Below are positions 9,972-36,895 of a stretch of DNA of 64,000 bases, piece after piece. Source of the DNA: Amphiscolops sp. MND2022 (taxonomy: Eukaryota); assembly GCA_964187785.1 (NCBI GenBank), contig OZ076409.1:4652001-4716000 (forward strand). Reading direction: 5' to 3'. Made by a program: the position numbers and the translations under genes. Within the stretch, counting starts at the first letter, position 1. Every line of letters begins with the position of its first letter. Under the pieces are notes generated by a model that searched no databases, was not told the DNA's origin, and saw only the letters and a program-made list of their open reading frames with translations.

Positions 9972-10145
9972 TGTTTTTTGTTTGTCTTCAGTCACTATGC
10001 ATTGTCCACTTTTAAGAATCTCATTACAGCTTGAGAACGAAACGACCACTTGGCTTAGTGGGTGAGTGCGTGAACGCTAAGGAAAAGCGCAAGAGTTCAA
10101 AAACAGGATGGACATTTTTATCTGACTTTGCAAAAGTTAACGAGA

Positions 10146-17474: not shown

Positions 17475-17831
17475 TTGCTTTTTGACTTAGGACTCACGCT
17501 CAAATAGACACTTTTTGGTTCAGTTTGTTCAATTAAAGCTAGTTTTTTCTCGTGGAACCAAAGAGTTCACCCTGTATGTACCACTTTTGCGCACTGTTCA
17601 CTTTTGTCATATGTACTTAGTACTTTGTTTTTAACGCATCCAAAGCCTATATCTTGAAATACAAAACCATTGCAAAGCAGAGGAGTCCTCCCTTACTCTT
17701 TGTTTGGCACTATGAGACTTTCCTCGCCCCCTTTTTGGCTTTATGAGACTTTTTTCGGGAAATTTTTTCTTCTTTCTTCATTTTTTTGACATTTTGCAAT
17801 AGAATGGATGTTGAAGAAGTCGAAAAGGTAC

Positions 17832-18100
17832 TGTGCTGCTTTTAATGGTTGGTTCTTTCTGATGGTGGTATTATTCACAACTACTAAAAGCGGCTAAGAG
17901 ACAGGCTAGCTAGCTAACTTTATTACAACTAGTTCGAGGTGTTAGAAGTAGAACAAAAAGGAAGTCAACCGAATACTGATTATTAGTTTTCTCTCTCTGA
18001 GGGAGTAGAGACTTACAGTCATTCAATAATAAATAAATGTACATTCTAGAATATTCTATAAACATCTAAATACTTTTGGTTATTAATGTAGGTCAGTACA
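17832..18100 (-). repeat. 3' LTR (269 bp)
   Basis: TG...CA ends; about 5 substitutions and a 2-bp indel versus the 5' LTR; AATAAA on the minus strand at 17919-17924. Confidence 0.97.
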
Positions 18101-18115
18101 TCCATCCCGGTTTTT
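18101..18115 (-). promoter_or_regulatory. Polypurine tract
   Basis: AAAAACCGGGATGGA on the minus strand, abutting the 3' LTR. Confidence 0.75.
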
Positions 18116-19121
18116 AAATAAAATAAAATTTTAAAGTAGCATCATTAATTAAAATGAAGAAAAAAAATTTTGTTTAAATGTTCTTAGCGTTCAGCTAGTT
18201 AACATTTTTCATTTGATGGATGATTGGCATAAGTCTCTGTAAGAGTGGTGTAAGTTCGACTCATTGGTGTACCTCGAATTGTCAAAATTTTGATTGACAC
18301 CTAGTAGGTGCGACTACAGTTCAAAAAGCGTCAAAGTGGTCTTTTTCACTATGCTTTCGTCGGCTTGTTTTTTGAACTGTTAGATGCTCAATTTTATGCC
18401 TCTGTTGAAGTCTTTGAATGAACTTCGCATTGAACAAACGTGAGCAAACATCATACGAGTTAAAGGTCAAAGAGTCATTGAAAAATTTTTGTTGATAGGA
18501 TTTTTTCATCGAGTGTGAAAACTGTCTGAAAAGATATCAGGTTGTGATCAACTTTGGCGGGTTTGTTATTGAACAAATGTTGAAAACTTTGGGAATTTGA
18601 GTCTGTCATTATTCGAATCTGATTCGAACAATGTGCTTGATCTATTTTTTGAGCTTGTTTTGTTGAACTGTTGAAAAGATTTGTTGTTAACATATGTGAA
18701 TTTTGGATAGGATAGCACCGAAAAATAATAATTTTTAATTATTCTTTAAAAATAAAGCAAATAAATATCGGTAAGAGTGTGAATTAAATGATTTTGAGAG
18801 CAATTAAATATGGGTGGGGATGAAATTTGAAATAAATACATTGCGAATGTTTTCGGTATGAGTTTGAATCTTTTTAAATATTATCATGCACAATGTTTTT
18901 TCTTTGAGTTTCCTTTATTATTGATTATCAATCATCTTCTTCGGTTGAGAACTGGATGGCTGAATATTGAAGATTGGAAGATGGATGAAGATGGGTCAGC
19001 TGTTGGGCGGCGGTGAAGTTGTGAAGAACGGGTGCTGAGTTGTGACGAGCAATCGTTGTGGTTGTTTGGATTTGAAGATATGTTGTCATCTGATGAGTGC
19101 TGTTGATGTCATCTGTTGATA

Positions 19122-19715
19122 TCAGAAAGAGACGTAAGTGTACGTTTTGTATGGGTAATTATCATCTAGAAGTGTTTCTGGAGGGTCTTTTTGAAGTTCT
19201 TCATCAGTATCGTCGTTATTGTCTGAAGGCCAATAGGAATTTAGGTTTTGTTTTTGCATTTCAGAATGCATTCTGTTAGATAGATTTCGTGATAAATGTT
19301 TGGGTTTGATTGTAGTATGCTCTGTTTGGGTAGTGGCGTCTCGTTGGGTTGAATATGTATCAGGATGTTTATGAATTTGAAGATATTGATCAAAGTTTAT
19401 TCGTGTGATTTGGAAGATTTGAAACATATTGAGCAATATCATTCTTGTAAGATGAGTATCTGCCTTTTTATCTGTTTTGAGCTGTGCATTTAATGTTGTT
19501 AAAGGCTTTTTCAGAATCAGGGATCGCAATCGAGCTGAAGGAATTGAAAGAAGAGGAGCTATTGGGCAGTCGGTGTCACCAGAATGGAGTGTCGTCATAT
19601 TGAAGAATATGAAGAAATTTGCTGAAAATTGTAGAAGATTTCGTTGGAATTCTTTTTGGATGGACGGCTTGAGAAGAGGAAGAAATGCTGATGAAGCAGT
19701 TGTGACGGTATTCAC
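19122..19715 (-). CDS. Element-borne ORF of unknown function, probably a spliced exon
   Basis: 197 open codons with no ATG at the start; preceded exactly by CTAATCTATTTTAG|G (branch point + acceptor-like). Confidence 0.45.
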   Translation of the reverse strand: MNTVTTASSAFLPLLKPSIQKEFQRNLLQFSANFFIFFNMTTLHSGDTDCPIAPLLSIPSARLRSLILKKPLTTLNAQLKTDKKADTHLTRMILLNMFQIFQITRINFDQYLQIHKHPDTYSTQRDATTQTEHTTIKPKHLSRNLSNRMHSEMQKQNLNSYWPSDNNDDTDEELQKDPPETLLDDNYPYKTYTYVSF

Positions 19716-20124
19716 CTAAAATAGATTAGTTTGTTTACAATAAAGTTCCTTTTAAAATAGAATTTCATAGTTGACATTTTTTTGATGTAATTTGTGATGT
19801 TATATTTTTTTTTAATTTTAGGAATTAAGTTGATGTATTTTGGAAGTCTTTTGAAGGGTATTTAAATATCTTTCATATAAGTACTTATTTGTTGAAATCG
19901 GTCCATTGAAAGGAGGAGCAATTGAGGAATTTTGTTAAAAATTTTTATGTCGTGATTGAAAATTTTTTATATTGTTTTATTTTAAAAGAGTATTTTAATA
20001 TCAAGCATGTAATATAATCATGCATAGCAGGCATATGCGTGTAGACTCAATTCATTTTGACAGGTTGTTAAGAGATTAAGTGATAAGTGTTAACAATTTA
20101 AAGTTATTATCCCATGATTACCAG

Positions 20125-21392
20125 TTAAGATCGTTGCATTTTTTCAATTGTATAGTTGAATTCGTCCAAAGATGTGCGAATACACAAAGCTGATTGGCTA
20201 ATTCTTGTCGTATCAAATACGTCATTTTGTATTATGCTTCGAGCTTGTTCAAGAGTATTTACGATTTCGGCGATTGTTATAAGAATGTCTCGGTTCGGAT
20301 GATGATAAGGTTTTATGATGTTCAAAATTTCTGTAAATTTCTGTAATTCGTCCGTTGGGCGAAAACTTTGTGGTTGAGGAATGTCATTTTTGGTTTTCTT
20401 TGGCGATTCTTGTTTTGTCTTCTTGTGTTCTTTATGATTTCCATTTGTAAGAAGTGAAAGCAGATGAGAAATAACGAAATTTAATTCATTATTTGAATAT
20501 CCCTTTTTGGTCATTGCGTAAAAATAGGATTTTTCACATCTCCCAGAGGTTGAGAGGCTATATGTTGAATTGGAGGAAGAGGATCAGATATATTTTGTGG
20601 TATATCTTCTTGTAGTAGCGAATCGTCGTTCAGAATGAGGTATTCTTGTGGTACAATGAATGTACACAGAAAACTTTGTTTAAGCGGATCATAATTTCTA
20701 AGTTTTCCTTTTGTTTTGGTATGATCTATCAAATATTCTGAGTTGAAAGTGAATGGCGACGTATATTTGGAGTTGAAGAATATATAATTATCGGGCTCTT
20801 TGTATTGAAGAAACTTCTGATAAGTCATGTGATGAGCTTTTTTGATTTAGTTTGGCAAAAAATTTGCATCATTTTCTTCGGTTCGAAGATCATCTGGAGT
20901 AGGTCTGAGGAAGTTGTATTGGAGTGAGAAAATTTTCACTTTATTTTTTAACCACCAATCATATGGGGTGATCAGTTTTGAAGCGATTGAAGTATGATAA
21001 TCATTTTTAAATTCTCTGATGATGATTTTGTGTTTTGTTGGAATCATGTATAACGAGGTTAACTGAGATTGAAAGGTAAATTGTTTTGATGAGAGAATAG
21101 GAACTAATTCACAATCTCTATCTTCATCTTGTTTAACTGGTTTTATGAAAGGAGGGCAAGCGCCAGATTCCATAAAAGGTTTGTCTGCAGTTATATCTGG
21201 ATACTTTCTTTTTTGAGATCTTGCGTTAACATGATCTACTTGTTCAATAGGAATAGTTTCCATGGGATCTTGAGAGTTTGAAGATGAGTTATTATCCTCG
21301 TTAACATTTTGTTGAATAGTTATATTCAAAGGGGATGCAAGCAATTCAGAGGGGTTAGAGTTAACTACATCAATTTCGGGCAAGGATTCCAT
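20125..21392 (-). pseudogene. Element-borne accessory ORF downstream of env (~420 aa if repaired)
   Basis: ORFs 21392-20847 and 20828-20511 are in the same frame, separated by one TAA. ORF 20514-20125 follows via an ATGA overlap. No recognisable domain. Confidence 0.55.
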
Positions 21393-21833
21393 TATTTAGA
21401 CTTGCGTGGTTTTGTTGAGCTAAATTAATGATTTATACGTTTGATTATACTATTTTTAATAATAAGGAAAACTTTTGTTATGTCTTTTCTGTCCATTAAA
21501 TTGTTTGTTAAAACTGAAGTTTAAATTGTACTTACAATATGAGAATAACTGAGTCAATTGTGGGTTGAAAACATCAACAATCACAGTGGCATCTATTCCA
21601 GGAATAGAAACTTCTGTAATTTCGGTCTTTTAGATGGACTGAAGATCCAGTTGAAGTCTTCTGGTTGAGAGTTGAGTTGTGATGGGCAAGTGAATTTTCA
21701 GTTGAGTTGAAAAGGAGAGACTGGTCCAAGTGAGAATTTGAGTTTGAATGAAAGTTAAACTGAGGAAAAATTTGTTGATAATTTTTTGAACTTTTTCTGA
21801 GGTTAATTTGTTTATTTGGTTATTGCTTTTTAG

Positions 21834-24416
21834 CTAAGAGGGATTAAATTTTATAAAGACTTTAGCAGGACTTTCCGGTACAGCTATTACATTTGATAAT
21901 ATTGGGTCATAGTCCTGAGAGTTAATATCGTTGACATTTGTTGGGTGTGTTTTTTGCGGTGATTGAAATGTTGAATTCTTACTGGAATATTTAGGAAGTA
22001 AATAAAGGGAGTCATTATCAGAGTATCTTCGTTTATTGTGTATTTCTTTTTCCGGCAATAGGATATTATCATTTTCACTTGTTGTGATTTTGGGTTTAGT
22101 ATATATCCGTTTTCGTTTTCCTGTATTGTTCAAATCGGTTATCATTTCCGATGTAACTATAATAAAAAATCCATGGGCTATTGAACTCAAAATGGAAATG
22201 TTGCTTTGGAGATTATATTTTATGCTAATTGTTCTGTAGAATTTGAGTAAAAATGTTAAAACTTCTCTAATGAAAAGAAATGTTGAAAAATAAATTCCAC
22301 ATTGTGTTAAAACATAACATGGATATCCAAAGAAAATAATGAATGCTTGACTGAACCAGTCAGGGTTGAAAAGTGGTAAGAGGTTTAACAAGTGGTCATG
22401 TACTCCAATCCTTAAATGATTATAAGGAATATGTCCTGGGTAAGAATGTTTATCATTATGTACTGTGATGAAATCATAGCTCAATGATTTTCCAAGTAAT
22501 TGAAGAGTTGTGTCTGAATGTTTAGCGAATAATACTCTGTTCCAGAATTGATCTAATTCTGTATTGAGTATATACCGGCATCTTGGGCGGTAAATGTATT
22601 AGGAGTGATTGTTGTTTTAATTTGGGTAGGTTTAAACATTTGTGGTGCTTCTCGTTTGAGTGGTTCAGGTGTTAACACATAAAAATCTCCGTCGTTATAA
22701 TCTGGGTCTAATTCGATTATATTTTGTGGGTTATTTCCACATTCAATTGGTGTTGCATAGTTAAAAGATTGTCTTGTTATAGGATCAACATACAATATAG
22801 TTTCTCTGTAGTGTATGGGAATTCTATCAAAGCATTTGTCTGCCTTGTATAGTGGTGATATAAAATGAGGGCAATCATACAGCCATGCTGTAGATCCTTC
22901 AACGTAGAGAAAGTTACTACGATTTCCAGTTAAAAGAAAACCGGCTAATTGAGGATTCTTAACTGACATAGCTAAGATTGTTAACAATTGAGTTCTTTTC
23001 AGTTCACATATTGTATGAAGGATGTGTTTAGTTCTTGTACTGTCATGGATTTAAATACATGGTTTATTGTGAAATCAATTTTTGTATCACTGTGGGCATC
23101 ATAGTCTAAAGTGGCGAAAGTGTTAGATATATTCAACGCAGGGAATATAAACCTTTTATTTGAGTCATCATATTTTATGTTTCCACTAATTGTTTGATCA
23201 ATTATTGAGTGTGGTTTTGGTAGTCCTGTGTTCATATCAAAACCATCTAAGTATGTAACAAAGATGTCTTCATATTGTGTTGAGAATAATGGTTCAGGTT
23301 TTCCACGAAAGGTTTGTGCAATTGGGTATATTTCAAATCGAGAACGGCTTGGATTGCTTACTTTTGATTGTGGTGTTTTCACATTAGGATATCTTGTTCC
23401 TTGTATTCCTTCGGTTTGAAGTTTTTGTGTGATGTTTGAAGTTTCAATGAAGGTATCAGTTTCTATCCAATGTCTATCTTTGATTCGTGTCATTCTACCA
23501 ATGAACTCTTGAAGTTGAAATATGAGGCCAAATTTTTCATCAAACCATGTTAATGTATATGGAGTTTTTGTCGTGGGTTTACAAAATGCGTCTGAATGAT
23601 AGCATGGTAAAATGTGTCCGTCATGTATTAATTGATTGTTTTTATCATCATAATCTATTGCGGTGTTAACAATTCTAAGTTTCCAACTTTGTCGGGTAAT
23701 TAAATGTTCTCTGTCGGCTCGACATCGGGAGTATGTATTTTGTGTAACATTAACAATCCAGTCGGGATAATTTTCATCGAATACGAAGGTTCCAATATGC
23801 CATGTGTTTAATTTATTTACTCTAAATGGTGTTTGAATTTGTTTAATTGTGTTTTGATAGTTACTATTGTTGAACAATGAGAAAGAGCTTTGTATATTGT
23901 AATTGTTTAGTTCTTCGCTATCAGTCGCGTTTAAATATCTTATCACGTTTTTGCATTCAATAGGGTCTATTTTTTTGGAAGTTCTAATGTGTTTTGTCCC
24001 CATTGTAAACGATCATATCGTCTACTAGATGTGAATGTTTGTGAACACCAGACCTTTTCAGTCTTTTTATATGCTTCGCATTTAAAGGCTTTTATTGTTT
24101 TGGCTTTTGCTCTAACATAAACTGTTGCTTGGGTTTTTGTGTGTTGTATATCTGAGGGTGCTTGTTTACATGGTTCAACATTTAATAAACTGAATTGTCT
24201 TCAGTTGTTTTTTTTTGCACAATCATAATGGGATACCATTAAGTTGAAAATGTTGGGGTCTTGGTCTGAAATATGATTTTCGGAATTGGTTGCATCAACT
24301 TTAGGAACAGTTGAAAGGTGAACTAAAGAGTGAACTATGTCTATGTGTATAATATATATGTATTTAACAACATGTATTATCTATACTAGGTATAGGTTAA
24401 AGGTTGTTTGATTCAT
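21834..24416 (-). pseudogene. env: Envelope glycoprotein, class III fusion-protein-like (chuvirus G / herpes gB type), disrupted
   Basis: Manual reading from ATG 24416 gives HYDCAKKNN*RQFSLLNVEPC...KAFKCEAY...WC, then DYDAHSDTKIDFTINH...LHTICELKRTQLLTILAMSVKNPQLAGFLLTG...EGSTAWLYDC...CFDRIPIHY...YVDPITR...ATPIEC. A C-terminal hydrophobic segment (FIIFFGYPCYVLTQCGIYFSTFLFI) and cytoplasmic tail follow. Two stops and ~3 frameshifts. Confidence 0.8.
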
Positions 24417-24430
24417 GGTTAAAATATTGG

Positions 24431-25896
24431 TTAAAATATTGTTCTATAATTAGGTCCGGAAGAGGGATTAAAGAAGTTTATATGTCCTGTTCTAATCTCA
24501 GGTAATTCTGCGTCACAAAGGTAAGAAATGGATGTGACTATGAATGGTGATGGGGTTGTTTTGTGTGCTACTCTTGTTGAAAGAGAGAATGGATGAGGTC
24601 CTAACGAGTTGAATGTGACTTCTACTTCAAATTTTAATGTGGGTTGTTGTTCTTGTAGTCTTCGTAAGTCTCTTTGTTTTCTTTGGGTTGAGAGTGAGCT
24701 ATTGTTTATAAATCTTGCAGGTAATACTGTGTATCTGGGATCTTCGTTGAGCGTACGAACAATTTTTGAATTAACACGGATGGGATATTCGTGAGGGTTT
24801 GGTGTTGGAGGTCTTGAGAAATCTTCTAAAAATTATTCAGGTAATTGTAAAGAAGAGTTTGATGCTATTGAACTAGGTGAATAAACTCGTGAGAAATTAG
24901 CTGCGCTATCTGATATAGTTATTGGGTCTTCAGAAAGAAGACAAGCTGTTTCAAATCCTGATGTGATTTGAAATGGTAGTGATAAAGAAGATGGTATAGT
25001 GGGTTGAGATGAGGAAAGAGAAGAAGGGTCTTATCTGGGTTGGGCGTGCTGTCTAAGTAGTCTTGAGTTTGTACTTGAACTAGTTAAAGATTGTAATTCC
25101 TGAGAATTTCTTTGTTGTTGAGATCGAAGGTTATAATTATGTCTTGGTACTCTAGTACTAGCAGTTGAGTCAGAATCTTTATCTTTATGATATAAACCTG
25201 TCAAAGAAGAGGTAGTGGTTGAATTTACACGTTCTAATTCAAGTTTGGGATATATTTGAGAAAATGTGAATGAACTTAGTTCAGATGGTGAAGGAATTGG
25301 GTGTTGTTGTGATTTCTTCACTGGTGCCTTCAATGAAGGTTCTGGTAAGAATGTTATTGGAGTATGACTTGATGATGGTAAGTTAATGTCTTGTGGTAAT
25401 GTAGGCAAAGGAGTTTTTCTTTTTGTTTTCGTTGCGGTTGGTACTTTATGTGGACAAGAATTTATGTATTGTAGAACTGAGCTGGGATCAGGGATATGAA
25501 AGGAATGAGTGGGAGTAATTGGTGGAAGAGGAGGTTTATTTAAAATATTTGAAGTATCTGGTGTATTTGGTGTTGTAAGTGTTTCATCATTAGAGTCAGA
25601 AACTGGTGAACGTGTTTCTGCAAATGTCAGATTTTGTGAAATAGGTTGTGATTGAGTTGATATTACTAGTGTTTGAGTTTGGGTTATAGGTGTATTGGTG
25701 GGTGTTATTGGTACTCTATCAGGAGTATATGGAGCGGATGGACTGGGGTTTGAGGATGAGGTATCCAGTATGTCTGTATCTGAGTTTAAATATGCCGGAT
25801 ATTCAGGTAATCTTCGGAGTGAATGTGTTGAACTAAAAGATGAATTATTTGTGGCTGATGATGGTGAGTGAATATGTCTATCAATTTTGAAATCTT
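24431..25896 (-). pseudogene. Extra ORF between pol and env: Ser/Thr/Pro-rich with a C-terminal ordered-looking region
   Basis: One frame runs ~490 codons with two internal stops (25031 and ~24836), includes the track ORF 25031-25408, and ends 14 nt before the env ATG. No ATG seen. Confidence 0.6.
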
Positions 25897-26076
25897 ATGT
25901 GTTATGGTAGTTTGTTTCAAATTGTAAGTTAGGTATTTTTATATCAATTAGGGTTTCTTTCTTTTATTATCACTTGTGAAATATTTTTTCATTCAATTTC
26001 ACATTAAGCTTCAAACTTTCTTTCTTTCTTTCAAATTTTCTTTCTGTCTTTCAGCAGGATTTTTGAGAAAGTGAAA

Positions 26077-29000
26077 TTATATCCTTTTCACCAAGGAAAA
26101 GTCGATAGTCTTATCTTGGTTGTGGGCGGAAATTGTATCTATAATAGGAGTGTCTTCGGGGGTTAATAAAATTATCATAGTCATGAATGTCTGATTGGTT
26201 ATCTGAGTTGGTATTTTGAGAATTTTGTTCTTTTTGTTGGTTCGGAAAGGAAGAATATTGGCTAAAGGATTCCGGTTGGAAGTCGATTGTGGATGGTATA
26301 TCCGTTTCTTTATTAAATGTTGTGGAAGAAAATTGATCTTCGTCACTGAATTGGTTTTCATCGGAGTTAATTATTTGATTGTTTATATTCGAATAATTAT
26401 CATTGAATAAATGAGGATTATACTGTTGTAGGGAAGGAAAAATAATTGGTTCTTTTGTATAGTAAGGAATTAAATGATTTCTGTGTATGTGAGATGTGTA
26501 ACCATCTTGATTAACAATTTCATATGTTATATAGGAAATTTTGTTAATATTTTTGAATGGTCCAATTCTGATAGGTTTTAATTTGTCGGAAAAATGAACA
26601 TGGAGAAAATTTCTTTTTAGTACAATTGTACCAATATCCAAGGGTCTCGGATTGTGGTATGTTTTGTTAAAATTAGCGTAAGAAATTAATTTTTCTTCTT
26701 GTGTTTTCATATACTGTATGGTATATTTGTATCATAGCAGTTTCAGTGGCTAAGATCCATTGTGGGATCGGTTTAGATAAAATTTTATGGAAGAAGGGGT
26801 TTAGATTTGATTTGTCATAGTGTGTATGAAGTGGTAATTCTTGACAATATTGGGAAGTACAATTTCTATATGTATCTCTTTGGAGATTGAGTTCAAAATT
26901 GATTGGAATTCTGGGTATAGTATGAAATACTATTTCATATGGAGATAAGTTCATTTCAGAAAGTGGTTGTGAATTATGTGCATAAGCATACATATGAACT
27001 TGAGTGGACCAGTTTTCTGGAGTGTTATGTAAGAAAAGTCTGAGATGAGTTCCAAGATTTCTGTTTTGATTTTCAACTAAACCATTAGTCCATGGTGCAT
27101 AAGGAGTTCTTGGTGAATGTCTAATTCCCATTGTTGTACAAAGGTTTGCGAATTCGGAATTAATGTTTTCTGTTCCACGGTCGGTAACTAGGTATACAGG
27201 AGGTCCAATTTTTGTTATCCAATGATGTAGTAAGGAGTTAACAGCGTTTTGAGCATTATTTTGTTTTATAGGTACTGTTACTACAAAGTGACTAAAAGCG
27301 TCTACTATAACATGAATGAATGAGTTTTGATTAGATGGTGGGTTTATAGGTCCTTTTGTATCCATTGATATTCGGTAATTAAAATATGAAGCATTTTCTG
27401 AGAATGTTTGTATGGATGCAGTTTGTATTTTTTGGTTAATATGTTTATTTTGTTGACATTCAATACAATCATGGATAAATATTAACATCCATTTATTCAA
27501 ATATGGTAAGAAGTAAAATTGATTAAAAGCTTTGATGGATAATTTTATTCCAGAGTGTCCGTGAGCATGAAGTTTGTTAAAAGCTGCGTGGAAGAGTTTA
27601 AATGGTAAACATATTTTGTCTCTTTGATTCGGATTTGAATCATGAATATTAGGATAATCTATGTGGATAATTTTTGTATCATGGTTAATATACAATTGGT
27701 TGAAAATTTTGTAATATACTAATAAGAAAGAATTAGCTGCGATTGTTGGGTCTATTAGTAAGGGTCTTTCATTATTAAGTATCCATTGGTAAACTTCTTG
27801 TAAAACAGTGTCTTGTTCTTGTTGAGTTTTAATTGTTTCAATTGTTATTTGTGTATCTTCTGGTAGGAAGAAATTATTAAAATATCTTTTGTATTTGAAA
27901 AAAGATGGATCAAAAAATGGAACTTGTTGATTACAATAATCGAATTTGGTAGGATCTTGTATAGCAAGTGTGTGTTCTTTTAACTTGTCTGAGTTTTGAT
28001 GTTGGATATTATTTGATGAAGTTAGTTCATCGTCATCACTGAGAATATCAGTATCATTAAGAATTGTCGACTGTTGTAAGAGAGATTTTGTTTGGTTTTT
28101 TGTATATTTTTTATATTTTGATTCAAATGGAACAATAGATTGAAAAGAGAAGGAATCTAAAGGTTTTATGTGGATATCTTCTCCTGTGTTTTTTATACGG
28201 ATAGAGAATTGGTCGTCTCCGTAGTCAGCAAGGATAGGATGACAATCATTGTTTTGATTATATTTGATTTCTTCATGTTTTACTAAATAGTGTACTGGTT
28301 TGAGTTGATTATCTTTCATGATAGAGAAATCTATTTGAGGTGGTAATTGTTTGTGTCGTAATTGATGTACTTGTAATTGTTCTTTTGTAAAAGTTCGTGA
28401 AAGCATATCTGCTACAGTTAAGTTTTTTCCAGGGGTATGAATGATTTTCAGTTTGGAGAATTTGGTTAATTGCATTTGTGCTCTATAGAATCTAGGACTA
28501 AGATTTACTTTCTTTGCGAAACAATGTAGTAGAGGTTTGTGATCTGTAAAGATGTTTATGGGATGAGGAGATCCAATGATCAAACATTCATATATTTGTA
28601 ATGCGTAAACTATTGCAAGAAGTTCTCTGTCTAAAGCTGAAAGTTTTTGTTCTTGTGTGTTAAGAATTCTGGAGTTATAAGAGATTACTTTCATTTTATT
28701 TTCTTCGTACATTTGGAATAAGACTGCGCCTAAACCAACTAACGAAGCGTCTACTGTTATGAAAAATGGATGCGTTGTATTGGGTATTGTTAATTCAGTG
28801 TCTGCTGTCATTGCATTTTTTACATTTTGGAATATTTTTTCTAATTCAGGTGTCCATTGGAATTTAACATCATCATGTAGTAATGTATACAATGGTTTAA
28901 GGTTTATATGAAGTTTTTCAATGAATCTTGAATAAAAGTTAACACTGCCAAGAAATTGCATAACATCTTTCTTTTCTTTTGGTCATGGGATTCTTTTAAT

Positions 29001-32000
29001 AGCTTCAATTTTGGATGGAATTGGCTTAACTGTGTTGTTACCAATTTCATGTCCAAGGAATTTTACTTGAGTAACATGTAGAACGATTTTTCAGGTGCAA
29101 GTTTGAGATTTTCTCGAGATGCTATTGTTTGTAACTCTTTTATAAGTTCAAACATTTCTTGTTTTTCATTTGCGAGGAGTAAAATATCATCTATATAAAC
29201 TAACGCAGAACGTCTATCTAAAGAAAGTTGACATTTGTTTTGTGAAAAAGTTTGGAAGTCCCTTTAATCCGTAAAATCCACGGATAAAGGCGTATAGTTT
29301 GTCACCGGATGAAAATCCTGTAAGTTTGATTTTTTCTTCGTCTAATGGTGTATGGGCATAGGCATACATTAAACCAATAATTGATTTATATTTTTTATTG
29401 GCTCTAACTAATTGAGGAGCTAAAGGTTCAATGGGCCAAGATTCAAGCTCTTGGTTAGTGTTTGAGTTTAAATGTCTTGCGTTTAAGACAACTTTTGTTG
29501 CGTCTCTTTTTGGGATAATAACTAAAAGGTTTAAAAATGTTGTTCCAATTGTGTGTTTTTCATCTGAGGTGGAACCAATTTGTTTTATTATATTGTATTT
29601 TTCGAGTTCTAGAAAAAGTTTATTTAGTCTATCTCTGTAGTGAATTGGTACTTTAGAAGGTCTTTGTGTATGAAGTTTACAGTTATCCTTTATTCTAATT
29701 CGAAAGGGAGTAGAAATTTTTCCTACGTCGTTCTTATGTTTGGCGTAACAATTTTGATTATCAATCAAAATATTGCAGAGGTTTACGTTTTCTGTATCTG
29801 TTAATTCTGAGTATTCAAAGTTAAACTTTTTTATGAATTGTTGGTTTTCTGTAGAAAATGGTAATGGAGGAAAATCTTTTCGAATTTTATCGGAGGGTCG
29901 AAGATTTCCAGTAACAGAAGGTATAGGAAGTAGAAGTGTTTTGTCGTTGATTTCTATTTTGTTAATTTCTAGTAAGGATTGTGGTGTTACCCTAGTACAT
30001 AAGTTCATATCTGCATATGGATTTTGTTTAATTGGAGTTGTGGTATCAGGGTGATACGCATGTATTACAGAGTGAATAAGTGAATTTACATCATTAACTC
30101 TATAGTGAGGAGGAGTTGTTTGAGTAATAGGGATCTCTATGTATCCAATGATTCCTAGTGGTAATGTGGCTGGGTAAGATGTAAAATTTTGAATTATAGT
30201 CGCACAAGAGTCTTTGCTTTTTTCATTGACTATCATATCCAAGAAATGAAAAATATCTTTAAATTTTTGTAAGAAGTTTGTATATTGGTTTGTTGGATAA
30301 AATTTTGTATTATCTTCAAGTTCAAAATGTAGATTTGAATAGTTTTTAATTGGGAAATGTATGGTTTTTCCTGACCTTGGTTTAAAGTGAATTGGTTCTT
30401 TACATTTAATAGTATAAATGTAAGAAATATATGGGTAATCTTTTTCGGTATATGTGGAAAATGTTGTTTTTGTTGAAAGCTTTGGATGTTGTTCTATGTA
30501 AGTCATAATATTTTGTTGAAAATCGATATTTTGGATGTGTTTTTTGAAAAAGGGTGTCCCAAGAATGTTGTATTTGATATTGGCTACGGCGAAATCGATA
30601 TTAAAGGATCGTGTTTGATGGTTTACTTCAGTAAAACAGGTTATCGAAATATAGTGTATTATTGGTACTTCAGTTTGGTTTGCAACTGTAAGAATTTTGG
30701 CTCTTTTGTTTTCAAGATTGGTTGGAACTTTGATGTTTAATTGTTTGGAAATCACATGAAATGTTGGTAAATTCAAAACAGATATGGATGCTTCAGTATC
30801 TAAGAGGAATAAGATTTCTAATTTTGAAGGTAATAAGTTATCATTTGTTTCAGAAGCGTGAACATATTGTGGATAAAACCAACTATAAGGAGTGATTGTA
30901 TTAGCTATTTCAGTTAATTGACAGGTGTGGATTTCAAATTTTGTACTATCATTGTCTTTTGTAGATTTAACGTCTACTTGATTTATTTTGTTTTGTTGTC
31001 GGTTTCGTAAGGGTGTTCTCGATCGTGATCTAAAATCTCTAGGTCTTGATGGAGATCTATATGGATAATTATATCGTTTAAAGGAGTTTGCTTGTGATTG
31101 AGAACGAGATCTGTATCTTGAGCGAGAGTTATATCTGTAATTTGAGTTATTTCTGTATGGAGATCTATATGGAGATCTAGATGGAGTTCTTCTTTGATAA
31201 TAATTATCAAATCGAGATCTATGTGGACTTCGAGATCCATTGTAATATCTTTGTCGAGAATTTGATCTATAGTTGTTTTGCGAAGATTCTCTACTATTGC
31301 TACGGTATCTATCATTATTTCTGTGTCTATCGTTTTGGTAATTTTGATTATATTTGTTACGATCGTCATCTGAGGAGTAAGGGTTTGTATTGTCATTTCG
31401 AGTTTCTTGTGAGTTATTAGGTTTCCTGCGAAAACATTGTACAAAGGATTGTTGAGGAGTTCGTGATCTGTGGTTATTGTATTTTTGGTTTTCATCATAA
31501 CGTTGTTTTTGATAACAGTTCGAAATACTATGATTATTTTTGTGACAATAGGAACAATATTTTTTATATGCTGGTTTGCTTTTGTTATTTGGGTCTCCAG
31601 ATTGAGTAACCTTTATATGATCTTCATGTTCAAATTCTTTTTTGTTAGTATCATCTTCAAGCGATACTTTGTTTATTTCTAGAGATAAGTCGTTAGTTCT
31701 AATTTTTTCGTTAGCAATGTCTTCAGAATCGACATGTCTAACAAGTGTGTGAAATGGTATTGAAGGTTCAAGTAATGTCGATACATGTTTAACTTGTCGT
31801 TTATGGGCGAAATCTTTTAATTTTTTGGGTAATCCTTTTGTAAAGATTTCATTATTTTTGAGGTTTATGGTAGCTGCAATTTCATCACACCATCCCTTTT
31901 CAACTAATTGTTGTACTCTAAGGGCGAAGTGGCGTACTGTTTCATTATCTTTTTTCATGAGTGACATAGCTTCTACGTGGGCGTAGTAAGCTTTTTTTTG

Positions 32001-34090
32001 AGATGAAAATTGTTTTTTGAATAATTGTACGAAGGAGTTCCAATGTTGTTTATATGATAAATGAAGGTTAGTATACCAATCGAGAGCTGTTCCTGTTAAA
32101 GAACATTGTATGTAAGCCATGCGTCTGTTATGCCAAGATCTTTATTTTATAGGATTATTCTGAGGTTCTTCACCTATGGCGAAGGTTAATCTAGCTTTGA
32201 CTTGTTGTAGATATTCTTCTGGAGTATAAGAATGGTCTAAACCATCAAAAGGTTTCATAGGTTCTGGTATTGAAGCGGACATGTTCATAAAGGTATCTTG
32301 TGGCATTGGTAAGTACTGGAGTGGAGGAGCTAATTGTTGTGTGATTTGAGGAGGTATATGTTGAGTTTTATTTTGTGGTAATGGATTTGGATTTGGATTA
32401 GGATTTGGATTGGGATTTGGATGCATTTGATATGAAGGATCAGTTGGTATCAGTGTAAGTGGAGGGTTTTGAAGTCTTCTTTGAGAATTATGTGTGGTAT
32501 GGGAATAAGAAGTTGAAGGATACGAAGTTCCTTGATTTTGAGAATATATATTATTCTATGAAGTACTGGTTTGTGATAATTGTATGAAAGGGTTTTGTGT
32601 TGTTGAATTCGTATTAATTTGAGAGTGATTTTGGTTGATATTTGTATTAGTATTTGTATTTGATGGAGTATAAAAGTTATAATTAAATGGATTGTAATAT
32701 GGATTGGAAGTTTGGGGATTATCATTACAATTGTTGTTTAAAGAAATCGATCTATCTGAGCGGAAAGCAGAAGGAATTAATGGAGGATCATATCTAGGTC
32801 GAGTAATGTATCTTGTAGAATCAGAATAGTTCTTGTTGGAGATGCAACATTAACAGAAGTATTCTGAGCATGAGATGTGGTTAGAATATCATCATGTAAT
32901 GTGTCATCGGTTTCGTCGTGTGTTGTTTCATCTGTGTATGGAAGGTTGAAAGTTATATTACTGTTTGGAGATGTATCTAAATGAGATTGAGGGCTTTGTG
33001 TATTTTGTCTCTGATTTACAACTCTAGTTGGAACTCTAAAGGATTGAGAGTGTGTTGATGTTGATGTTCCTGCTTGTGATGCATTTCGTGTTGAAATTGT
33101 AGGTTCTTGAGTAGTAAACTCAGTATCATTATAGTTTTCATTTTGATTTTGTTGTTGGAGTGTATTTTCATTATTGGTAGTATCATCTTCAGTATAGTTA
33201 TTAGTGTTAAATTTTAAGTTTTGTTGAACTTGAGAATTTTGCTCATAGTGATAAGGTCTATTGTCTGCAAATATATCATTTTCTGTAATTAATAGAGGAT
33301 CAAAACGTATGTAATCTAAAGTTTGGTTTGTAATTAATTGTGGTTTATGGAAATAAGGATGTTCATTTTGTTCACTGATGATGAATGGTTAACATTCGTC
33401 AACTGTAAAATGATTTGGAAATGCTGTAAAAGCAGGTTGATCTTGTTGTGACCATAATAGTTGATAATTGAATCTGAAGTATTTTCTGAGGAATAGAGAT
33501 ATTATTTTGATCTGAGGAATTGTTTGGTCATTTAATGTTAAGTCTTTGAAATAATGATAGAGGAAATTTTGTATTCTTAATATATCAGTTTGTAACCAAT
33601 GATGAGGATTGTCTTCAGGATTAACTAATCTTTCAATAATTTCTACGTCGAAATTATTTTAATATCGTTCAAGTTCGTCGAGTGCATTTGGACTAAATTT
33701 TGGAATTTCATGTGCTAGGTTGTGGTCTTTAACATTGTTTAAAAAAGCATGAAAAACTTGTTTAATAGAAACTTGGAGGTTTATTGGGTTTATTGTTTTT
33801 CTGTATATATGAGATGAATTAGGTCTTTGTTGAAGAAAGGAAGTTTGAAAAGCTGGGTATTCTGCAGTGATAGTTAGAACTTTGTATCTAATATAGAAGA
33901 GGTATGTGTCCAAATGTTCTCTGATAAGAGGTATTGTTTCAATTGTATGAGGTTCATTTTCAAATGGGAGTGGTTGTGTATAATGGGAAATAATGTTTTG
34001 TAGGAAGGGGTTTAGTTCTAATTTTACAACTTTTGCATTTTCAATGACGGGAGTTTGAAAAAGTAGAAAGGTTGTTATTGAGGAGTTCAT
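26077..34090 (-). pseudogene. gag-pol: Gag-Pol polyprotein (long N-terminal extension, capsid, CCHC, RS-rich tract, PR, RT, RNase H, integrase)
   Basis: Capsid PFDG...SLTGTALDWY; knuckle CSYCHKNNHSISNC; protease FLLDTEAS (catalytic-motif G lost) and ILGTPFF; RT FYGLKGLP and LVYIDDILL (~29190); RNase H VDAS...DRELLAI...TDHKPL...ADMLSR; integrase HAHGH...CIEC, MDTKGP, TDRGT, NGLVENQN, and GPF motif. Broken by several stops and frameshifts. Confidence 0.95.
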
Positions 34091-35462
34091 TTTTAAAGTT
34101 TATCTTTTCTCACTGTAAGTATTTTTTAAAGAGAATACTAACTATAAATAAGACACAAAACGTGTATGTTGTAATGAGCACTACTGTGGTAACTTTTTCC
34201 CACATGTTATAATATGAAGGTTGAAACGTTGAAAATAATTTTTGATAGAGATCCTTTTAAGTTGGAGCTCTTGGGTAATGTCTTTGTTGATTTATGATAA
34301 AGAAAAAATTTTGTTGATATCGTTCAATTAATCTTTCAAAATCGTCTGATGTAGGGTTTTGAAGTGAGATAATTGGCGGAATGTAAAAAGTGAAAGGATA
34401 AATTGTTTGATTGTATATGTTAGGGTTCATATAATTAGTATTGTAACAAGAATTTGAAGTTATTTGGGATGTTAATAGTTTTGGATAGAGAAGAAAGAAG
34501 CGGATGCAAAAGAATCTGTATTCAACCTCAAAGGATTGCTAACAGAAACTAAGTGTGATTTTAAGTCTGGATCACTTTAAAGTGTCTAACATAAGGTTAC
34601 TGACACGTCCAGAAACGCTAAGGTTATTTTAATTTTAAGTGGGTTGTGTGTTTTAGGACTAAGGGGGTGGAGCTCTGAACAATCAACGTCCACTATCCAA
34701 AGTCTGATCAATTCTGATCAAGATCAAAGTTTGATCTTTGTTTCTTTTACTTTTACTTTTACTTCCTGAGAATTTTTAAGATTCGAACGTAGTTCGGTGT
34801 CCTCTCGATTCTCCTTAAAGACGTTTACACTTAAGTAAAGTTGTTAGTCAGTCTTAGAATCAGAGTGAGCTGGTGGAGCTGTCTGATTGTCTACGTCTTA
34901 CGGGAGGGGATGGTAATTGTGGGTGCCTGAAAGTAGAAAACTAACTTTACAGTGTCTGTTTTATTTACATGCCTTATTTTAGGTTTTAGGGCAAAAAAGT
35001 TGTGAGAATTGTATGTGGTATTTTGTTAAAATAATTGTTTTGTAAGATTATATTAGAATTATTGTTGTTAAAAGTATTAGATATAAGGTTAAGTGTTGAT
35101 TGTGTTGTTATTTTTCTTGTGTTGTTTAAGTTTTGAATTTATTAGTATTGTTTAAGTTTTGTGAAATTATGTGTATTGTTTGTCGACAATTGGAAAAGAA
35201 ATGGAATAGTGCGTGGTTGTTTTTTGTAGATAATCTTGGTTGCCTTTTTTTTATTCAGAGTCTATTTCTGAAAACTATTTTGTAGGAATTTTTTGTAGAA
35301 AATGGATCCGAAACGTAAAGGTAGAAAATCCAGGTTTTCTGCCAACACGAAGTTGATCTTGAGACGTATGTGCTTATAGGTGAGCGGAGCTGGACATGCA
35401 CTCAGTCAACTATTACACCAGGAGTCCACCTGACGTTCAAGATAGCAGGATTGAAGAAAGTT

Positions 35463-35790
35463 GGTGTCAAAGGTGTTAGAAAACCTTGATAAACCAGAAA
35501 AATGTTGCTGTGTCAAAGGTGTTAGAAAACCTTGATAAACCAGACAAACATCAACGAACTGTTTCAACAAGCTTCCGGATTAGCTGTGATAAATCAGTAT
35601 AGAGAACAGAACTGTGTCACTTTTGGATAAATCAGTCTGGAAAGAGAAGAGAAACAGAACTGTGTCACAATGGATAAATCAGTCTGAAATGAAACCGTTT
35701 CAACGTGTTAGAAAACGTGATAAACCGGTATGGCAAGAAGAGCAGAAAGAAGAACCGTATCAACGTGTTAGAAAACGTGATAAACCGGTA
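35463..35790 (-). repeat. Array of seven related hairpin/GATAAA modules in the 5' leader
   Basis: Units at ~35463, 35508, 35559, 35612, 35660, 35695 and 35755 share C(T/C)GT(G/T/A)TCA...GATAAA(C/T)C(A/G)G; the first unit is slightly divergent. Confidence 0.75.
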
Positions 35791-36007
35791 GTGAAGAAAA
35801 TTTGTTATATTTGAATTGATTGTTGTAGTGGAGAAATTGTATTTCTAACGATGATGTATTTTTTGATGAAATTCAGAAAGTCAAAAACTAAATTTTCAAG
35901 AAATTCTAGAAAGATTTCACTGCAATTCCAGAGAATTTCAAAGATGGAGAGTGGTATTTGTTTTATTGTTGAGAGAAGAGAAATCATCCAGGAGAAAAAG
36001 GCAAGAA

Positions 36008-36025
36008 ATTTTACAAGTCGCACCA
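36008..36025 (-). promoter_or_regulatory. Primer-binding site
   Basis: TGGTGCGACTTGT begins 3 nt after the 5' LTR on the minus strand. The cognate tRNA was not identified. Confidence 0.75.
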
Positions 36026-36028
36026 AAT

Positions 36029-36299
36029 TGTGCTGCTTTTAATGGTTGGTTCTTTCTGATGGTGGTATTATTCACAACTACTAAAAGCGGCTAAGAGACA
36101 GGCTAGCTAGCTAACTTTATTACAACTAGTTCGAGGTGTTAGAAGTTGAACAAAAAGGAAGTCAACCGAATTCTGATTATTAGTTTTCTCTCTCTGAGGG
36201 AGTAGAGACTTACAGTCATTCAATAATAAAGAAAAATGTACATTCTAGAACATTCTATAAACATCTAAATACTATTGGTTATTAATGTAGGTCAGTACA
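36029..36299 (-). repeat. 5' LTR (271 bp)
   Basis: Direct repeat of 17832-18100, followed by TSD GTAC. Confidence 0.97.
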
Positions 36300-36303
36300 G
36301 TAC

Positions 36304-36895
36304 CCCTTTTACACATTTCGGCATTTTGAGACTTTTCAAAGTGATTATTTTCGCCTGAAATTTTTTCTCAATGTTCATCCAAAAATATCCATTACAAAGC
36401 GTTATATCTAATTTTTGACGTTATATCCGAACTGTACTGCGTTTTAAAGAAAAGGCGGAGGTTCGAAAGCAGGAGTTTTCCATGAAAACGTCCTATGCCT
36501 ATTTCAAAAGCTGCGCTTTTTGAGCCTCAGATATAGCGCCGAGTTTGGACGTTCCTGCCTTGTTTCTTTTTAAACGTTACATACAAACAGAGAGCATAAG
36601 GAATGGCCTCCCTTTTTTGAAAAGTTTTCAATGTCTCCAAATGGTCAACCGTTCGATTGTTTCGATATTATGGAACCAATTGGGTGTTTGAAAACCCCTT
36701 TTACATTTTTCGACACTATGAAACTGTTTCAAAACTCTCCTTTTTCGTTTTTTTTCGAAAGTTTTCTAATGTCTCCAAAAGGTCCTCCTTCATTTTTTTG
36801 GTATTTTGCAACAAACTGGGTTTTCAAAAAGAAACCTCTCATTTACTATTCTGAGTCTTAGATATAGCGCCGAATTTGGCCGTTCCCGGCTTGTT
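36304..36895 (+). mobile_element. HINE family A 3' portions; the first is the remainder of the copy split by the giant LTR element
   Basis: AAAAGGTAC|CCCTTTTACACATTTCGGCA reconstitutes the family core motif across the insertion. 3' ends at 36564 and 36895. Confidence 0.7.

Follow-up and report, generated by a model that had tools for sequence, protein, structure and literature searches.

An 18.4-kb env-bearing Ty3/Gypsy-type element with additional reading frames in Amphiscolops sp.

The window analysed here, a stretch of 64,000 nucleotides from Amphiscolops sp. MND2022, harbours a Gypsy element of 18.5 kb, which is two to three times the typical size of such elements. The question raised by this locus is whether the reading frames found in addition to gag, pol and env are genes of the element or foreign DNA lodged within it.

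Boundaries and copies of the element

A complete LTR element occupies positions 17832-36299 of the window, with its sense strand on the minus strand and a total length of 18,468 bp (Table 1). Its two LTRs are direct repeats of the TG...CA form that differ by five substitutions and one 2-bp indel (K2P 0.019), and together with the short target-site duplication they identify an LTR retrotransposon or endogenous retrovirus-like element. Of the other copies, seven retain both LTR ends, and six of these are likewise flanked by perfect 4-bp duplications. The PBS-like site, a TGG-initiated 17-mer, shows at most one change in other copies, in which the PPT-like sequence is kept as well. No tRNA was detected in the window by ARAGORN. 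A candidate tRNA end, a genomic 22-mer that is present in many copies and ends in ...AAGTCGCA, would form 11 paired bases with the PBS-like site if CCA were added.

From 5' to 3', the element consists of the 5' LTR, the PBS-like site, the leader with an upstream ORF, gag-pol, ORF X, env, acc1 and acc2, and then an untranslated stretch of some 1 kb, the PPT-like sequence and the 3' LTR. All 16 stop-to-stop frames of at least 100 aa are located on the minus strand, as are 25 of the 28 frames of at least 80 aa. The sense strand is composed of A 0.39, T 0.29, C 0.22 and G 0.11, and the flanks differ from it. No LTR-like repeats were found inside the element. The initial annotation, which described an 18.5-kb Gypsy element of complex layout with LTRs, a GTAC duplication, PBS- and PPT-like sites and frames on one strand, agrees with these findings. 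The window copy is disrupted in gag-pol, ORF X, env and acc1; it is a dead, defective copy that was inserted recently.

Table 1. Features of the element, in window coordinates
Feature	Position	Strand	Remarks
Target-site duplication GTAC	36300..36303; partner copy 17828-17831		borders element at both ends
5' LTR	36029..36299	-	TG...CA, 271 bp
PBS-like site TGGTGCGACTTGTAAAA	36009..36025	-	begins 3 nt past 5' LTR
Leader, ~1.9 kb	34091..36028	-	up to element position ~1500, no consistent coding signal
Upstream ORF	34257..34430	-	57 codons, MNPNIYNQ...RAPT*
gag-pol	26051..34090	-	in-frame stops and frame changes in window copy
N-terminal gag extension, ~650 aa	32150..34090	-	dN/dS 0.40 vs 0.95 / 0.94 off frame
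Capsid-like domain	31899..32111	-	Pfam Retrotrans_gag, 4.1e-7
CCHC zinc knuckle CSYCHKNNHSISNC	31515..31556	-	motif read off translation; R/S-rich stretch after
Protease active-site motif LLDTEAS	30786..30806	-	DTGAS in another copy
Reverse transcriptase core with YIDD	29066..29263	-	RVT_1 1.9e-7; shifted frame in window copy
RNase H	28458..28856	-	RT_RNaseH 3.9e-25, RT_RNaseH_2 7.4e-25
Integrase, H2C2 zinc domain and rve core	27093..27596	-	1.9e-6; 1.2e-13
pol-ORF X spacer	25902..26050	-	purine-rich GAAAG repeats, length varies; conserved TGATAATAA triple stop
ORF X	24431..25901	-	about 489 codons; two in-frame stops in window copy
env	21834..24416	-	split across three frames in window copy
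Stretch directly past env TAG stop	21633..21833	-	67 codons in env frame; dN/dS 0.33 (0.18-0.74)
acc1	20125..21392	-	430 aa, soluble, KRK-rich stretch
acc2	19122..19725	-	frame of 197-200 codons, open in window copy; first Met 19598, giving 158 aa
3' untranslated region, ~1 kb	18116..19121	-	frame-specific constraint absent
PPT-like AAAAACCGGGATGGA	18101..18115	-	purine-rich 15-mer, adjoins 3' LTR
3' LTR	17832..18100	-	269 bp

Ten other copies, located on different chromosomes, were fetched, and all ten carry the extra regions in collinear order, although the presence of ORF X is partly by construction because the copies were picked via ORF X matches. The leader, the gag extension, acc1, acc2 and the 3' untranslated region played no part in this choice. 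Four of the copies can be aligned over all 18,468 bp at 93-95%, and one more can be aligned up to position 18329; the remaining five have internal deletions or duplications but keep the collinear order. Eight further places show acc1 after env, again separated by about 420-450 nt. In a first look, the LTR, the ORF X region and the acc1 region yielded comparable numbers of candidates (1747, 1420 and 1449, respectively).

Selection was estimated as pairwise Nei-Gojobori dN/dS over 11 copies, with the coding frame compared to the two other frames. Overall, the ratio is 0.25-0.42 in the coding frame versus 0.7-1.7 in the other two, the pairs being non-independent and the intervals quoted for single frames reflecting codon resampling only. 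Non-coding parts yield 0.59-1.05 in all frames. The copies are 5-7% apart, whereas divergence between the two LTRs of a copy is only 1.1-3.0%; much of the divergence among copies is therefore older than insertion. The ratios indicate that all frames of the element were held by purifying selection during the diversification of the family.

Relatives with open frames are present in the same genome, as the initial annotation had anticipated from the similarity of the LTRs. Frames of at least 2,600 codons are open at 16 of the 55 best pol places, env is stop-free or has a single TAG at 38 of 52 and acc1 is stop-free at 78 of 98, shares that describe the best-scoring copies and are not genome-wide rates. 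Among the places scored in the genome, distant acc1 relatives are without a stop at 92 of 94 and a sister ORF X at 79 of 101.

Gene content

The leader contains a conserved upstream ORF (34430-34257) that had been overlooked in the initial annotation. Its ATG and stop are unbroken in nine of 11 copies, and its dN/dS is 0.29 (0.14-0.50) in frame versus 0.71 and 1.44 off frame.

In intact relatives, gag-pol is a single frame of about 2,650-2,680 codons, laid out as N-terminal extension, capsid, CCHC knuckle, R/S-rich stretch, protease (PR), reverse transcriptase (RT), RNase H and integrase (IN). The extended gag proposed earlier corresponds to a translated N-terminal extension of about 650 aa, in which an ordered part of about 280 aa precedes a Q/N/S/T/P-rich part; it has no Pfam match and Atlas scores of at most 0.76. 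Pfam found no protease family in gag-pol, and PR is recognised by its DTG-type motif. RVT_1 reaches 3.2e-13 in another copy. In-frame dN/dS is 0.34 for gag-PR-RT and 0.33 for pol, of which 489 relatives were found. By the pol domain order PR-RT-RNase H-IN, with IN last, unlike in Ty1/Copia, and by the predicted capsid and CCHC motif of gag, the element is assigned to the Ty3/Gypsy type.

ORF X is S/T/P-rich and disordered, with a conserved PSAP motif and a small C-terminal beta domain. Its dN/dS is 0.40 in frame versus 0.73 and 0.96 off frame, with 0.37 (0.17-0.88) for the first 44 codons. Ten of the 11 copies have no in-frame ATG, where composition predicts 4.6. Relatives at 41-45% identity have motifs in common with it, and one continues into the env N-terminus. 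In sister families, ORF X has an ATG at the frame start (P0354), and its absence here could reflect a defect in the lineage of this family rather than splicing. A rough search for splicing signals yielded nothing decisive. As a 4-residue motif in an S/P-rich protein, P(S/T)AP could be preserved by composition alone. The AlphaFold models of ORF X (mean pLDDT 38.5) and acc1 (30.6) are unusable.

The env protein comprises a signal peptide, an ectodomain of about 680 aa, a transmembrane segment and a tail of about 135 aa, with hydrophobic segments at residues 19-37 and 715-733, 16 Cys and 10 NxS/T; among the element proteins, it alone has signal and transmembrane segments. The Pfam family PF24664 ('Monjiviricetes_fusion'), whose members are presumably class III fusogens, matches an open 869-codon env copy (3.5e-23) and the window fragment 22556-23050 (2.6e-14). 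This is the sole match: no baculovirus/paramyxovirus F-type family was found on env at E<=0.1, and phmmer against PDB chains gave nothing at E<=1. The dN/dS of env is 0.42 in frame versus 1.06 and 0.94 off frame, and a TAG common to copies was found only 5' of the env Met. These predicted features give env the topology of a type-I membrane glycoprotein, and the Pfam match relates it to the fusion glycoproteins of negative-strand RNA viruses. Its position 3' of pol, the predicted signal peptide and anchor, and the homology to viral fusion glycoproteins place the element among the env-carrying Ty3/gypsy elements whose ENV, here putatively, is of class III (HSV/gB- or Chuviridae-like). Errantivirus sensu stricto, the genus of the insect elements gypsy, ZAM and Idefix, was rejected as a placement because env matches no F-type family. 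The 67-codon stretch 3' of env, frame-shifted in several copies, is possibly under constraint.

The most constrained gene is acc1 (dN/dS 0.25 versus 0.93 and 1.69). The window copy of this gene contains one stop and a frame change and falls about 25 nt short of other copies. Its 320 representative relatives include no Pfam family, and a profile scan of viral contigs found no acc1. The frame of acc2 (0.40 versus 0.86 and 0.91 off frame) is open as far as the common stop in seven of 11 copies. The upstream ORF, the gag extension, ORF X, acc1 and acc2 have no match in Pfam, the PDB sequence search or Atlas. Three of the additional coding regions listed by the initial annotation, namely 25896-24431 (ORF X), 21392-20125 (acc1) and 19715-19122 (acc2), are retained here. 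A fourth, 18693-18321, within the 3' untranslated region, finds no support as a coding frame: its dN/dS is 0.63-1.2 in all frames, and a sliding scan is flat over element position 17155-18200.

Expression and origin of the additional genes

The locus very probably represents a copy, recently inserted and since disabled, of an endogenous retrovirus-like element of the Ty3/Gypsy type that is 18.4 kb long, has its genes in the order given above and is very abundant in an animal genome. The DNA flanking the element is suggestive of a metazoan host. In such an element, a full-length LTR transcript would serve as genome and as gag-pol mRNA, the product of which would be cut by the element's own protease. 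Subgenomic, most likely spliced, RNAs would permit the translation of env, ORF X, acc1 and acc2. Because ORF X has no ATG and yet is constrained from its first codons, an upstream exon may supply its start codon, as for CERV of the C. elegans element Cer1. The functions of the accessory proteins are conjecture, since they match nothing in the databases searched. ORF X is most likely a putative adaptor in particle release or RNA handling, a guess based on the conserved P(S/T)AP, the disorder and the position beside env. Soluble, KRK-rich and the most constrained, acc1 is most likely a putative nuclear regulatory factor, which is likewise a guess.

An element of this size, in which known domains are absent from every extra frame, might also be a one-off chimera, or its extra regions might be nested insertions, as the initial annotation had considered, or chance-open junk between pol and the LTR. 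Such foreign regions are not expected to keep the same order and spacing in all ten other copies, which lie on different chromosomes and have 4-bp duplications of their own; internal LTR-like repeats are absent, and relatives at 35-48% identity have open frames. Neutral evolution of the extra frames, the other doubt raised earlier, is contradicted without recourse to a consensus: they are constrained in one frame only and open in many copies. The foreign origin is refuted by the collinear copies and the frame-specific dN/dS, and its probability is close to nil. It is more conceivable, but improbable, that the extra genes are real passengers picked up from host or virus, without a role in replication, in an element that spreads only within cells and keeps env as a relic. 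Capture of ORFs, either between pol and env or past env, is known for LTR retrotransposons (as described in PMC6431247), and germline retrotransposition alone could yield thousands of copies. Against this, all four extra frames and env match pol in constraint, and they are retained in sister families diverged to 35-48% protein identity. The share of open env frames also speaks against a relic, and some lineages would be expected to have lost a gene, which, copy-specific deletions aside, none of the ten copies has.

The block of ORF X, env, acc1 and acc2 may instead have been taken in one piece from a negative-strand RNA virus, with the accessory proteins as diverged phosphoprotein-, matrix- or nucleoprotein-like proteins. 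In mononegaviruses, the P and M genes precede G, and the order of ORF X and env recalls this arrangement. The env protein matches a Pfam family named for Monjiviricetes, and ORF X, which is S/T-rich and disordered and has a small domain at its C-terminus, lies directly 5' of the glycoprotein gene. The likeness in gene order is loose, however, the searches matched ORF X, acc1 and acc2 to no viral protein, and the acc1 profile is absent from the scanned viral contigs. This origin is considered very improbable.

Relation to known elements

Complex retroviruses, such as lentiviruses and foamy viruses, carry gag-pol-env together with a number of accessory frames, small or medium in size, all on a single strand. 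The window element resembles them in layout, in its long leader and in the A-rich sense strand. It differs from them in that its pol is of the Ty3/Gypsy type by Pfam domain set, its env is no SU/TM protein of class I, and none of its accessory proteins resembles Tat, Rev, Tas or similar.

Cer1 of C. elegans is under 9 kb long and is not known to have a working env. Like the window element, it belongs to the Ty3/Gypsy type, has gag-pol as one frame and encodes an additional S/T-rich protein without a known family. This protein, CERV, is phosphorylated, and its mRNA is spliced and shares its first exons, in frame, with gag (PMC10309623). The likeness is one of description; splicing has been demonstrated for Cer1 and is only inferred for the window element, and the account of Cer1 gives one accessory gene, whereas the window element has several.

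Other giant Gypsy-like elements are Burro of planarians, at over 30 kb, and Ogre of plants (PMC6431247). They share with the window element the Gypsy type, a length far over 10 kb, thousands of copies and extra coding capacity. As described in that source, Burro has an env-like region matching mononegavirus fusion glycoproteins, which is part of one polyprotein of about 4,900 aa together with BIR, MATH, BCL2-like and other domains, and the size of Ogre comes largely from its LTRs. In contrast, the window element has LTRs of only 270 bp and separate extra genes with no known domain. The Vesta and Juno elements of bdelloid rotifers (PMC5408684) are similar in having extra frames 3' of pol, some of which are common to diverged families. 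LTR elements with captured ORFs usually have one extra ORF by these accounts (PMC5408684, PMC6431247), compared to four or five plus env in the window element.

A further comparison is offered by the 'ancient errantiviruses'. These are Ty3/gypsy elements with env, found in metazoans other than insects and in some insects, whose ENV is of the HSV/gB type (class III) or Chuviridae-like (Chary & Hayashi, eLife 2026, PMC13524379). By that description, they have in common with the window element a Ty3/gypsy-type pol, a downstream env with signal peptide and membrane anchor that is akin to RNA or DNA virus glycoproteins rather than to the baculovirus F type, and multiple copies with signs of recent spread. 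They are presented there as having three ORFs, in the order GAG-POL-ENV or GAG-ENV-POL; the upstream ORF, the 650-aa gag extension, ORF X, acc1 and acc2 of the window element go beyond this set. That survey, the largest, retained, as it is described, only regions of at most 10 kb with a POL-ENV gap of at most 1 kb. An element of the window type would have been dropped by these filters, because it spans 12.3 kb from gag to env, with the 1.6-kb ORF X between pol and env.

The window element is a variant of env-bearing Gypsy elements already known. A bolder reading, which is possible but doubtful, regards it as a dead member of a living lineage of 'complex' metaviruses, Ty3/Gypsy viruses of an animal that would be enveloped and would have expanded to 18 kb by the addition of at least four proteins of new families, namely the small upstream protein, the gag extension, the P(S/T)AP protein without a start codon beside env, and the two proteins encoded past env. 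Spliced subgenomic RNAs would give rise to these proteins, which would be required for RNA export, budding or host control. If true, complexity parallel to that of lentiviruses and spumaviruses would have arisen independently, outside Retroviridae, and sister families would still be active in the host.

Gypsy elements bearing env are found across animals and treated as three-gene elements. The family described here shows that they can hold four or five further genes, which are conserved as strongly as pol, lie outside known protein families and are common to diverged sister families that occupy a sizeable share of a 1-Gb genome. It provides a tractable system, in which one genome contains many natural copies as well as several diverged families, for asking how retroelements gain accessory functions and whether 'complex' genome organisation has evolved repeatedly.

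Boundaries of the element and its other copies

The element is delimited by two LTRs, and its own coordinates (el) follow the minus strand from 5' to 3', the window position being 36300 minus el. The initial annotation had recognised a GTAC target-site duplication and an LTR pair with about five substitutions and one indel. Direct-repeat search and alignment confirm both: GTAC borders the element on either side, and five substitutions and one 2-bp indel distinguish the LTRs of the window copy (K2P 0.019), a divergence of 1.9% that is a relative measure without an absolute date. A PBS-like sequence, TGGTGCGACTTGTAAAA, lies 3 nt inward of the 5' LTR, a PPT-like sequence, AAAAACCGGGATGGA, adjoins the 3' LTR, and both are kept in other copies. 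A tRNA partner of the PBS was looked for and not found. The 22-mer TTCAAGTCTCCGGTAAGTCGCA, present at more than 20 places in the genome, including six copies about 1.77 kb apart on contig 4 near 73.84 Mb, resembles the 3' part of a SINE or of a tRNA-like gene; if CCA were added, bases 1–11 of the PBS would pair with it.

Between the LTRs, all 16 stop-to-stop frames of at least 100 aa lie on the minus strand, as previously stated for the long frames, and so do 25 of the 28 frames of at least 80 aa. A strong strand bias in composition sets the element off from its flanks (GC skew 0.2–0.47), the sense strand being composed of A 0.39, T 0.29, C 0.22, and G 0.11. No Rfam family matched window 15000–39000 at the gathering threshold, and a tandem-repeat search returned short arrays only. 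The element is inserted within a cluster of short repeats. Four copies of a dispersed 82–91-nt repeat with the core GAGCCTTAGATATGGCGCC...CCCGGCTTGTT lie immediately to its left (window 15892–17484) and at least three to its right (window 36481–38262). The flanking DNA also holds the remnant and the two frames listed in the table, which hint at a metazoan host.

Features of the element and of its flanking DNA. Genes of the element are the longest natural open frames, read separately in each of 11 copies (the window copy and ten others).
Feature	Position	Strand	Size	Remarks
LTRs	window 17832-18100, 36029-36299		269 bp, 271 bp	TG...CA; direct-repeat search and alignment
Upstream ORF	el 1870-2040	-	57 codons	open in 9/11 copies
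gag-pol, single frame	el 2210-10246 (ATG el 2210, stop el 10247)	-	~2,650-2,680 codons	open in 0/11 copies
pol-ORF X spacer	window 25902-26050	-	~150 nt	purine-rich GAAAG repeats, length-variable, ends with conserved TGATAATAA
ORF X	el 10399-11866	-	~489 codons	open in 5/11 copies
env	ATG el 11884 (window copy) to el 14463	-	858 codons from Met (869-codon open frame)	open in 1/11 copies
acc1	el 14908-16172	-	430 aa	nearly complete in 2/11 copies
acc2	el 16575-17175	-	200 codons	first Met at codon ~40-42; open in 7/11 copies
Non-LTR retrotransposon remnant	window 4295-8202	+		frames match Exo_endo_phos (7.8e-11) and RVT_1 (4.6e-22)
Intronless frame	window 39082-40230	-	383 aa	weak rhodopsin-family 7TM match (2.6e-5), below Pfam's cut-off
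Frame	window 43947-44417	-	157 aa	weak C-type lectin match (3.4e-4)

The extra regions of so long an element could be nested insertions, in which case other copies would lack them, as the initial annotation had pointed out. The 1.07-Gb assembly was searched segment by segment at the DNA level. The LTR yielded 1747 candidates (40 scored, all but one at 97–100% identity), the ORF X region 1420 (40 scored, 94–96%), and the acc1 region 1449 (40 scored, mostly 89–95%), the candidate counts being unscored lower bounds. Ten other copies were picked from these match lists, which biases the sample towards complete copies with ORF X. Four of them align end to end over 18,468 bp at 93–95%, and a fifth reaches el 18329. 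The remaining five are collinear with copy-specific deletions or duplications (el 3117–5613, 5145–6856, and 7908–8658; a gap of about 126 nt; a 3' duplication). Perfect 4-bp duplications, differing in sequence, accompany six of the seven other copies that have both LTR ends. At eight further genomic places, env is followed by acc1 with a spacing of about 420–450 nt. The collinearity of all ten copies and the recurrent env–acc1 spacing rule out nested insertions and imply that the 18.4-kb layout is the family's own.

Coding capacity and selection

The window copy is defective. Its gag-pol, with an altered protease motif, is interrupted by several in-frame stops and frame changes; two stops fall in ORF X, env is split among three frames, and acc1 has one stop and a frame change in a region of 1,271 nt, about 25 nt shorter than the ~1,296 nt of other copies. 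Under a ciliate-type code (table 6) the frames stay separate, as true frame shifts remain. Pfam domains can still be assigned in this copy: Retrotrans_gag, RT_RNaseH and RT_RNaseH_2, Integrase_H2C2 and rve, and RVT_1 in a shifted 66-codon fragment with YIDD. A CCHC knuckle and the protease motif LLDTEAS (DTGAS in another copy) were read off the translation. The domain order, PR-RT-RH-IN, is that of Ty3/Gypsy elements, and about 650 codons of gag-pol precede the capsid domain.

The env candidate matches PF24664 'Monjiviricetes_fusion', with 2.6e-14 for the window fragment and 3.5e-23 for the open 869-codon frame of another copy, and no F-type family in Pfam. This open frame has a hydrophobic N-terminal segment, one membrane segment (residues 715–733), a tail of about 135 aa, 16 Cys, and 10 NxS/T sites. 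A sequence search of the PDB with env returned nothing at E ≤ 1.

Selection was estimated by the Nei-Gojobori method as dN/dS for each of the 55 pairs among the 11 copies, with codon columns set by a natural open copy and re-read in the other two frames as a control. The pairs are non-independent, the intervals reflect codon resampling only, and the copies are a best-match sample; within these limits, in-frame dN/dS is 0.40 (0.34–0.49) for the ~650-aa gag extension versus 0.95 and 0.94 off frame, 0.34 for gag-PR-RT (0.92, 0.89), 0.33 for pol (0.80, 0.96), 0.42 for env (1.06, 0.94), and 0.29 (0.14–0.50) for the upstream ORF (0.71, 1.44). In the leader and in the intergenic and 3' UTR stretches, all frames lie at 0.59–1.05, and a sliding scan agrees with the per-gene values throughout. 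The copies are 5–7% divergent from one another and only 1.1–3.0% between their own LTRs (5.8% in one pair, of which one LTR is truncated), so much of the divergence arose in replicating lineages, which is what allows selection to be seen.

The additional coding regions proposed earlier fare well on the same 11 copies, with one exception. ORF X (0.40, 0.33–0.52; off frame 0.73, 0.96), acc1 (0.25, 0.18–0.32; off frame 0.93, 1.69), and acc2 (0.40, 0.28–0.59; off frame 0.86, 0.91) show frame-specific dN/dS below 1, whereas the tentative fourth frame (el ~17607–17979) gives 0.63–1.2 and finds no support. Over the R/S-rich part of gag (window 30986–31612, minus strand), the window copy and several others have an open alternative frame of 209 codons; the sliding scan finds constraint in the gag frame only, and the alternative frame is probably a by-product of composition. 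Right after the env TAG (window 21633–21833, minus strand), 67 codons in the env frame have a dN/dS of 0.33 (0.18–0.74). This stretch has no Met and is frame-shifted in several copies; a read-through tail, an RNA element, and noise are the candidate explanations.

ORF X and the accessory proteins

ORF X lacks an evident start. In 10 of the 11 copies it contains no in-frame ATG, against 4.6 expected by composition and a Met content of 0.8–2.4% in the other genes; its codons 1–44 are constrained all the same (0.37, 0.17–0.88). In sister families, an ATG stands at the frame start (database protein P0354) or at the 'MNSDTD' position (P0255, P0314). Read-through from pol into ORF X is rejected by the differing spacer length among copies and the conserved triple stop TGATAATAA, and the database proteins that seem to fuse IN and ORF X (P0328, P0343) are internal-deletion copies and do not point to a fused product. 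The start codon may instead be supplied by an upstream exon, by analogy with CERV of Cer1, which takes its start from an upstream exon on a spliced mRNA that has the first exons of gag in common (PMC10309623). The spacer may act as an internal polypurine tract, or it may signal splicing or termination. A scan for splice consensus matches gave many acceptor-like and few donor-like sites and no defensible pairing.

S, T, and P make up 38% of ORF X. The protein is predicted to be disordered save for a C-terminal helix and three strands (pLDDT ~63 in an AlphaFold model from an 18-row alignment with mean pLDDT 38.5), and constraint is strongest in this C-terminal domain (dN/dS 0.26). The 125 relatives of ORF X are unnamed and include some at 41–45% identity; the ORF X profile found none in metagenome contigs. 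SP[ST]AP occurs near the N-terminus in all seven sequences covering the site; VP.H.YNLR, L[LV]RQ[HQ].QP, TSG[FL][ED][ST]AS, and the C-terminal domain are further common motifs. One distant relative continues into an env N-terminus, which indicates that the order ORF X then env is conserved. Where ORF X gives way to env (window ~24417–24436), between the stop codon of the one and the ATG of the other, a duplication of about 20 nt (TTTTAACTATAGAACAATA-like), present in 5 of the 11 copies and absent from the window copy, divides the family into two sub-lineages.

None of the accessory proteins matches Pfam or has a hydrophobic segment. For acc1, a PDB sequence search gave nothing at E ≤ 1 and the Atlas no usable match; Atlas scores for the gag extension were 0.76 or lower. 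A word search found 320 relatives of acc1, at 69–94% identity among those listed and none of them named. A profile search returned 320 representative relatives, 35 at E ≤ 1e-30, including full-length proteins with an alignment identity of only 33–35% to acc1 of the window; against viral contigs the profile found none. A KRK-rich stretch and strong conservation of the core characterise the protein, whose AlphaFold model (17-row alignment) has a mean pLDDT of 30.6. For the extra genes as a group, mode of expression and function are inferred.

Relatives in the genome and known elements

The expectation that more intact relatives may exist is borne out by protein queries, whose counts refer to the best-scoring places and not to genome-wide rates. 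Among the best 55 of 42,504 candidates for pol (818-aa query), 47 have no stop, and 16 lie within open frames of at least 2,600 codons, most commonly 2,654. The best 52 of 11,447 for env are full length in one frame, 5 without a stop and 33 with a single TAG; the only TAG that recurs among the aligned copies in the env frame is upstream of the env Met. Stops are absent from 78 of the best 98 of 7,638 acc1 candidates, from 79 of the best 101 of 9,128 candidates for the sister-family ORF X (P0354), and from 92 of the best 94 of 8,271 candidates for distant acc1 relatives (44–50% to the database protein P0370; frames of 376–601 aa). These counts show a large and diverse lineage, some of whose members have open genes. 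The sister families are much younger than the window's family. The 96–100% identity of the matches to P0354, together with several pol places that score identically within 2,654-codon open frames, suggests that they spread very recently.

Elements of this kind are already known. A survey (PMC13524379) describes env-carrying Ty3/gypsy elements with F-type or HSV/gB-type ENV as widespread in animals and Chuviridae-like glycoproteins beside gypsy POL. Additional ORFs, whether between pol and env or downstream of env (PMC6431247; PMC5408684), and giant Gypsy elements such as Burro and Ogre (PMC6431247) are likewise on record. By the thresholds of the survey (PMC13524379; POL–ENV gap of at most 1 kb, overall at most 10 kb), a family like this would be filtered out, since its corresponding measures are 1.6 kb and 12.3 kb. 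The initial annotation was largely right in its overall reading, and the element is real. Relative to the part of the literature searched, what is new is how many conserved extra genes there are, the protein families they form, and an ORF X that has no start of its own. The element is an env-bearing Gypsy variant whose conserved gene set is unusually rich.
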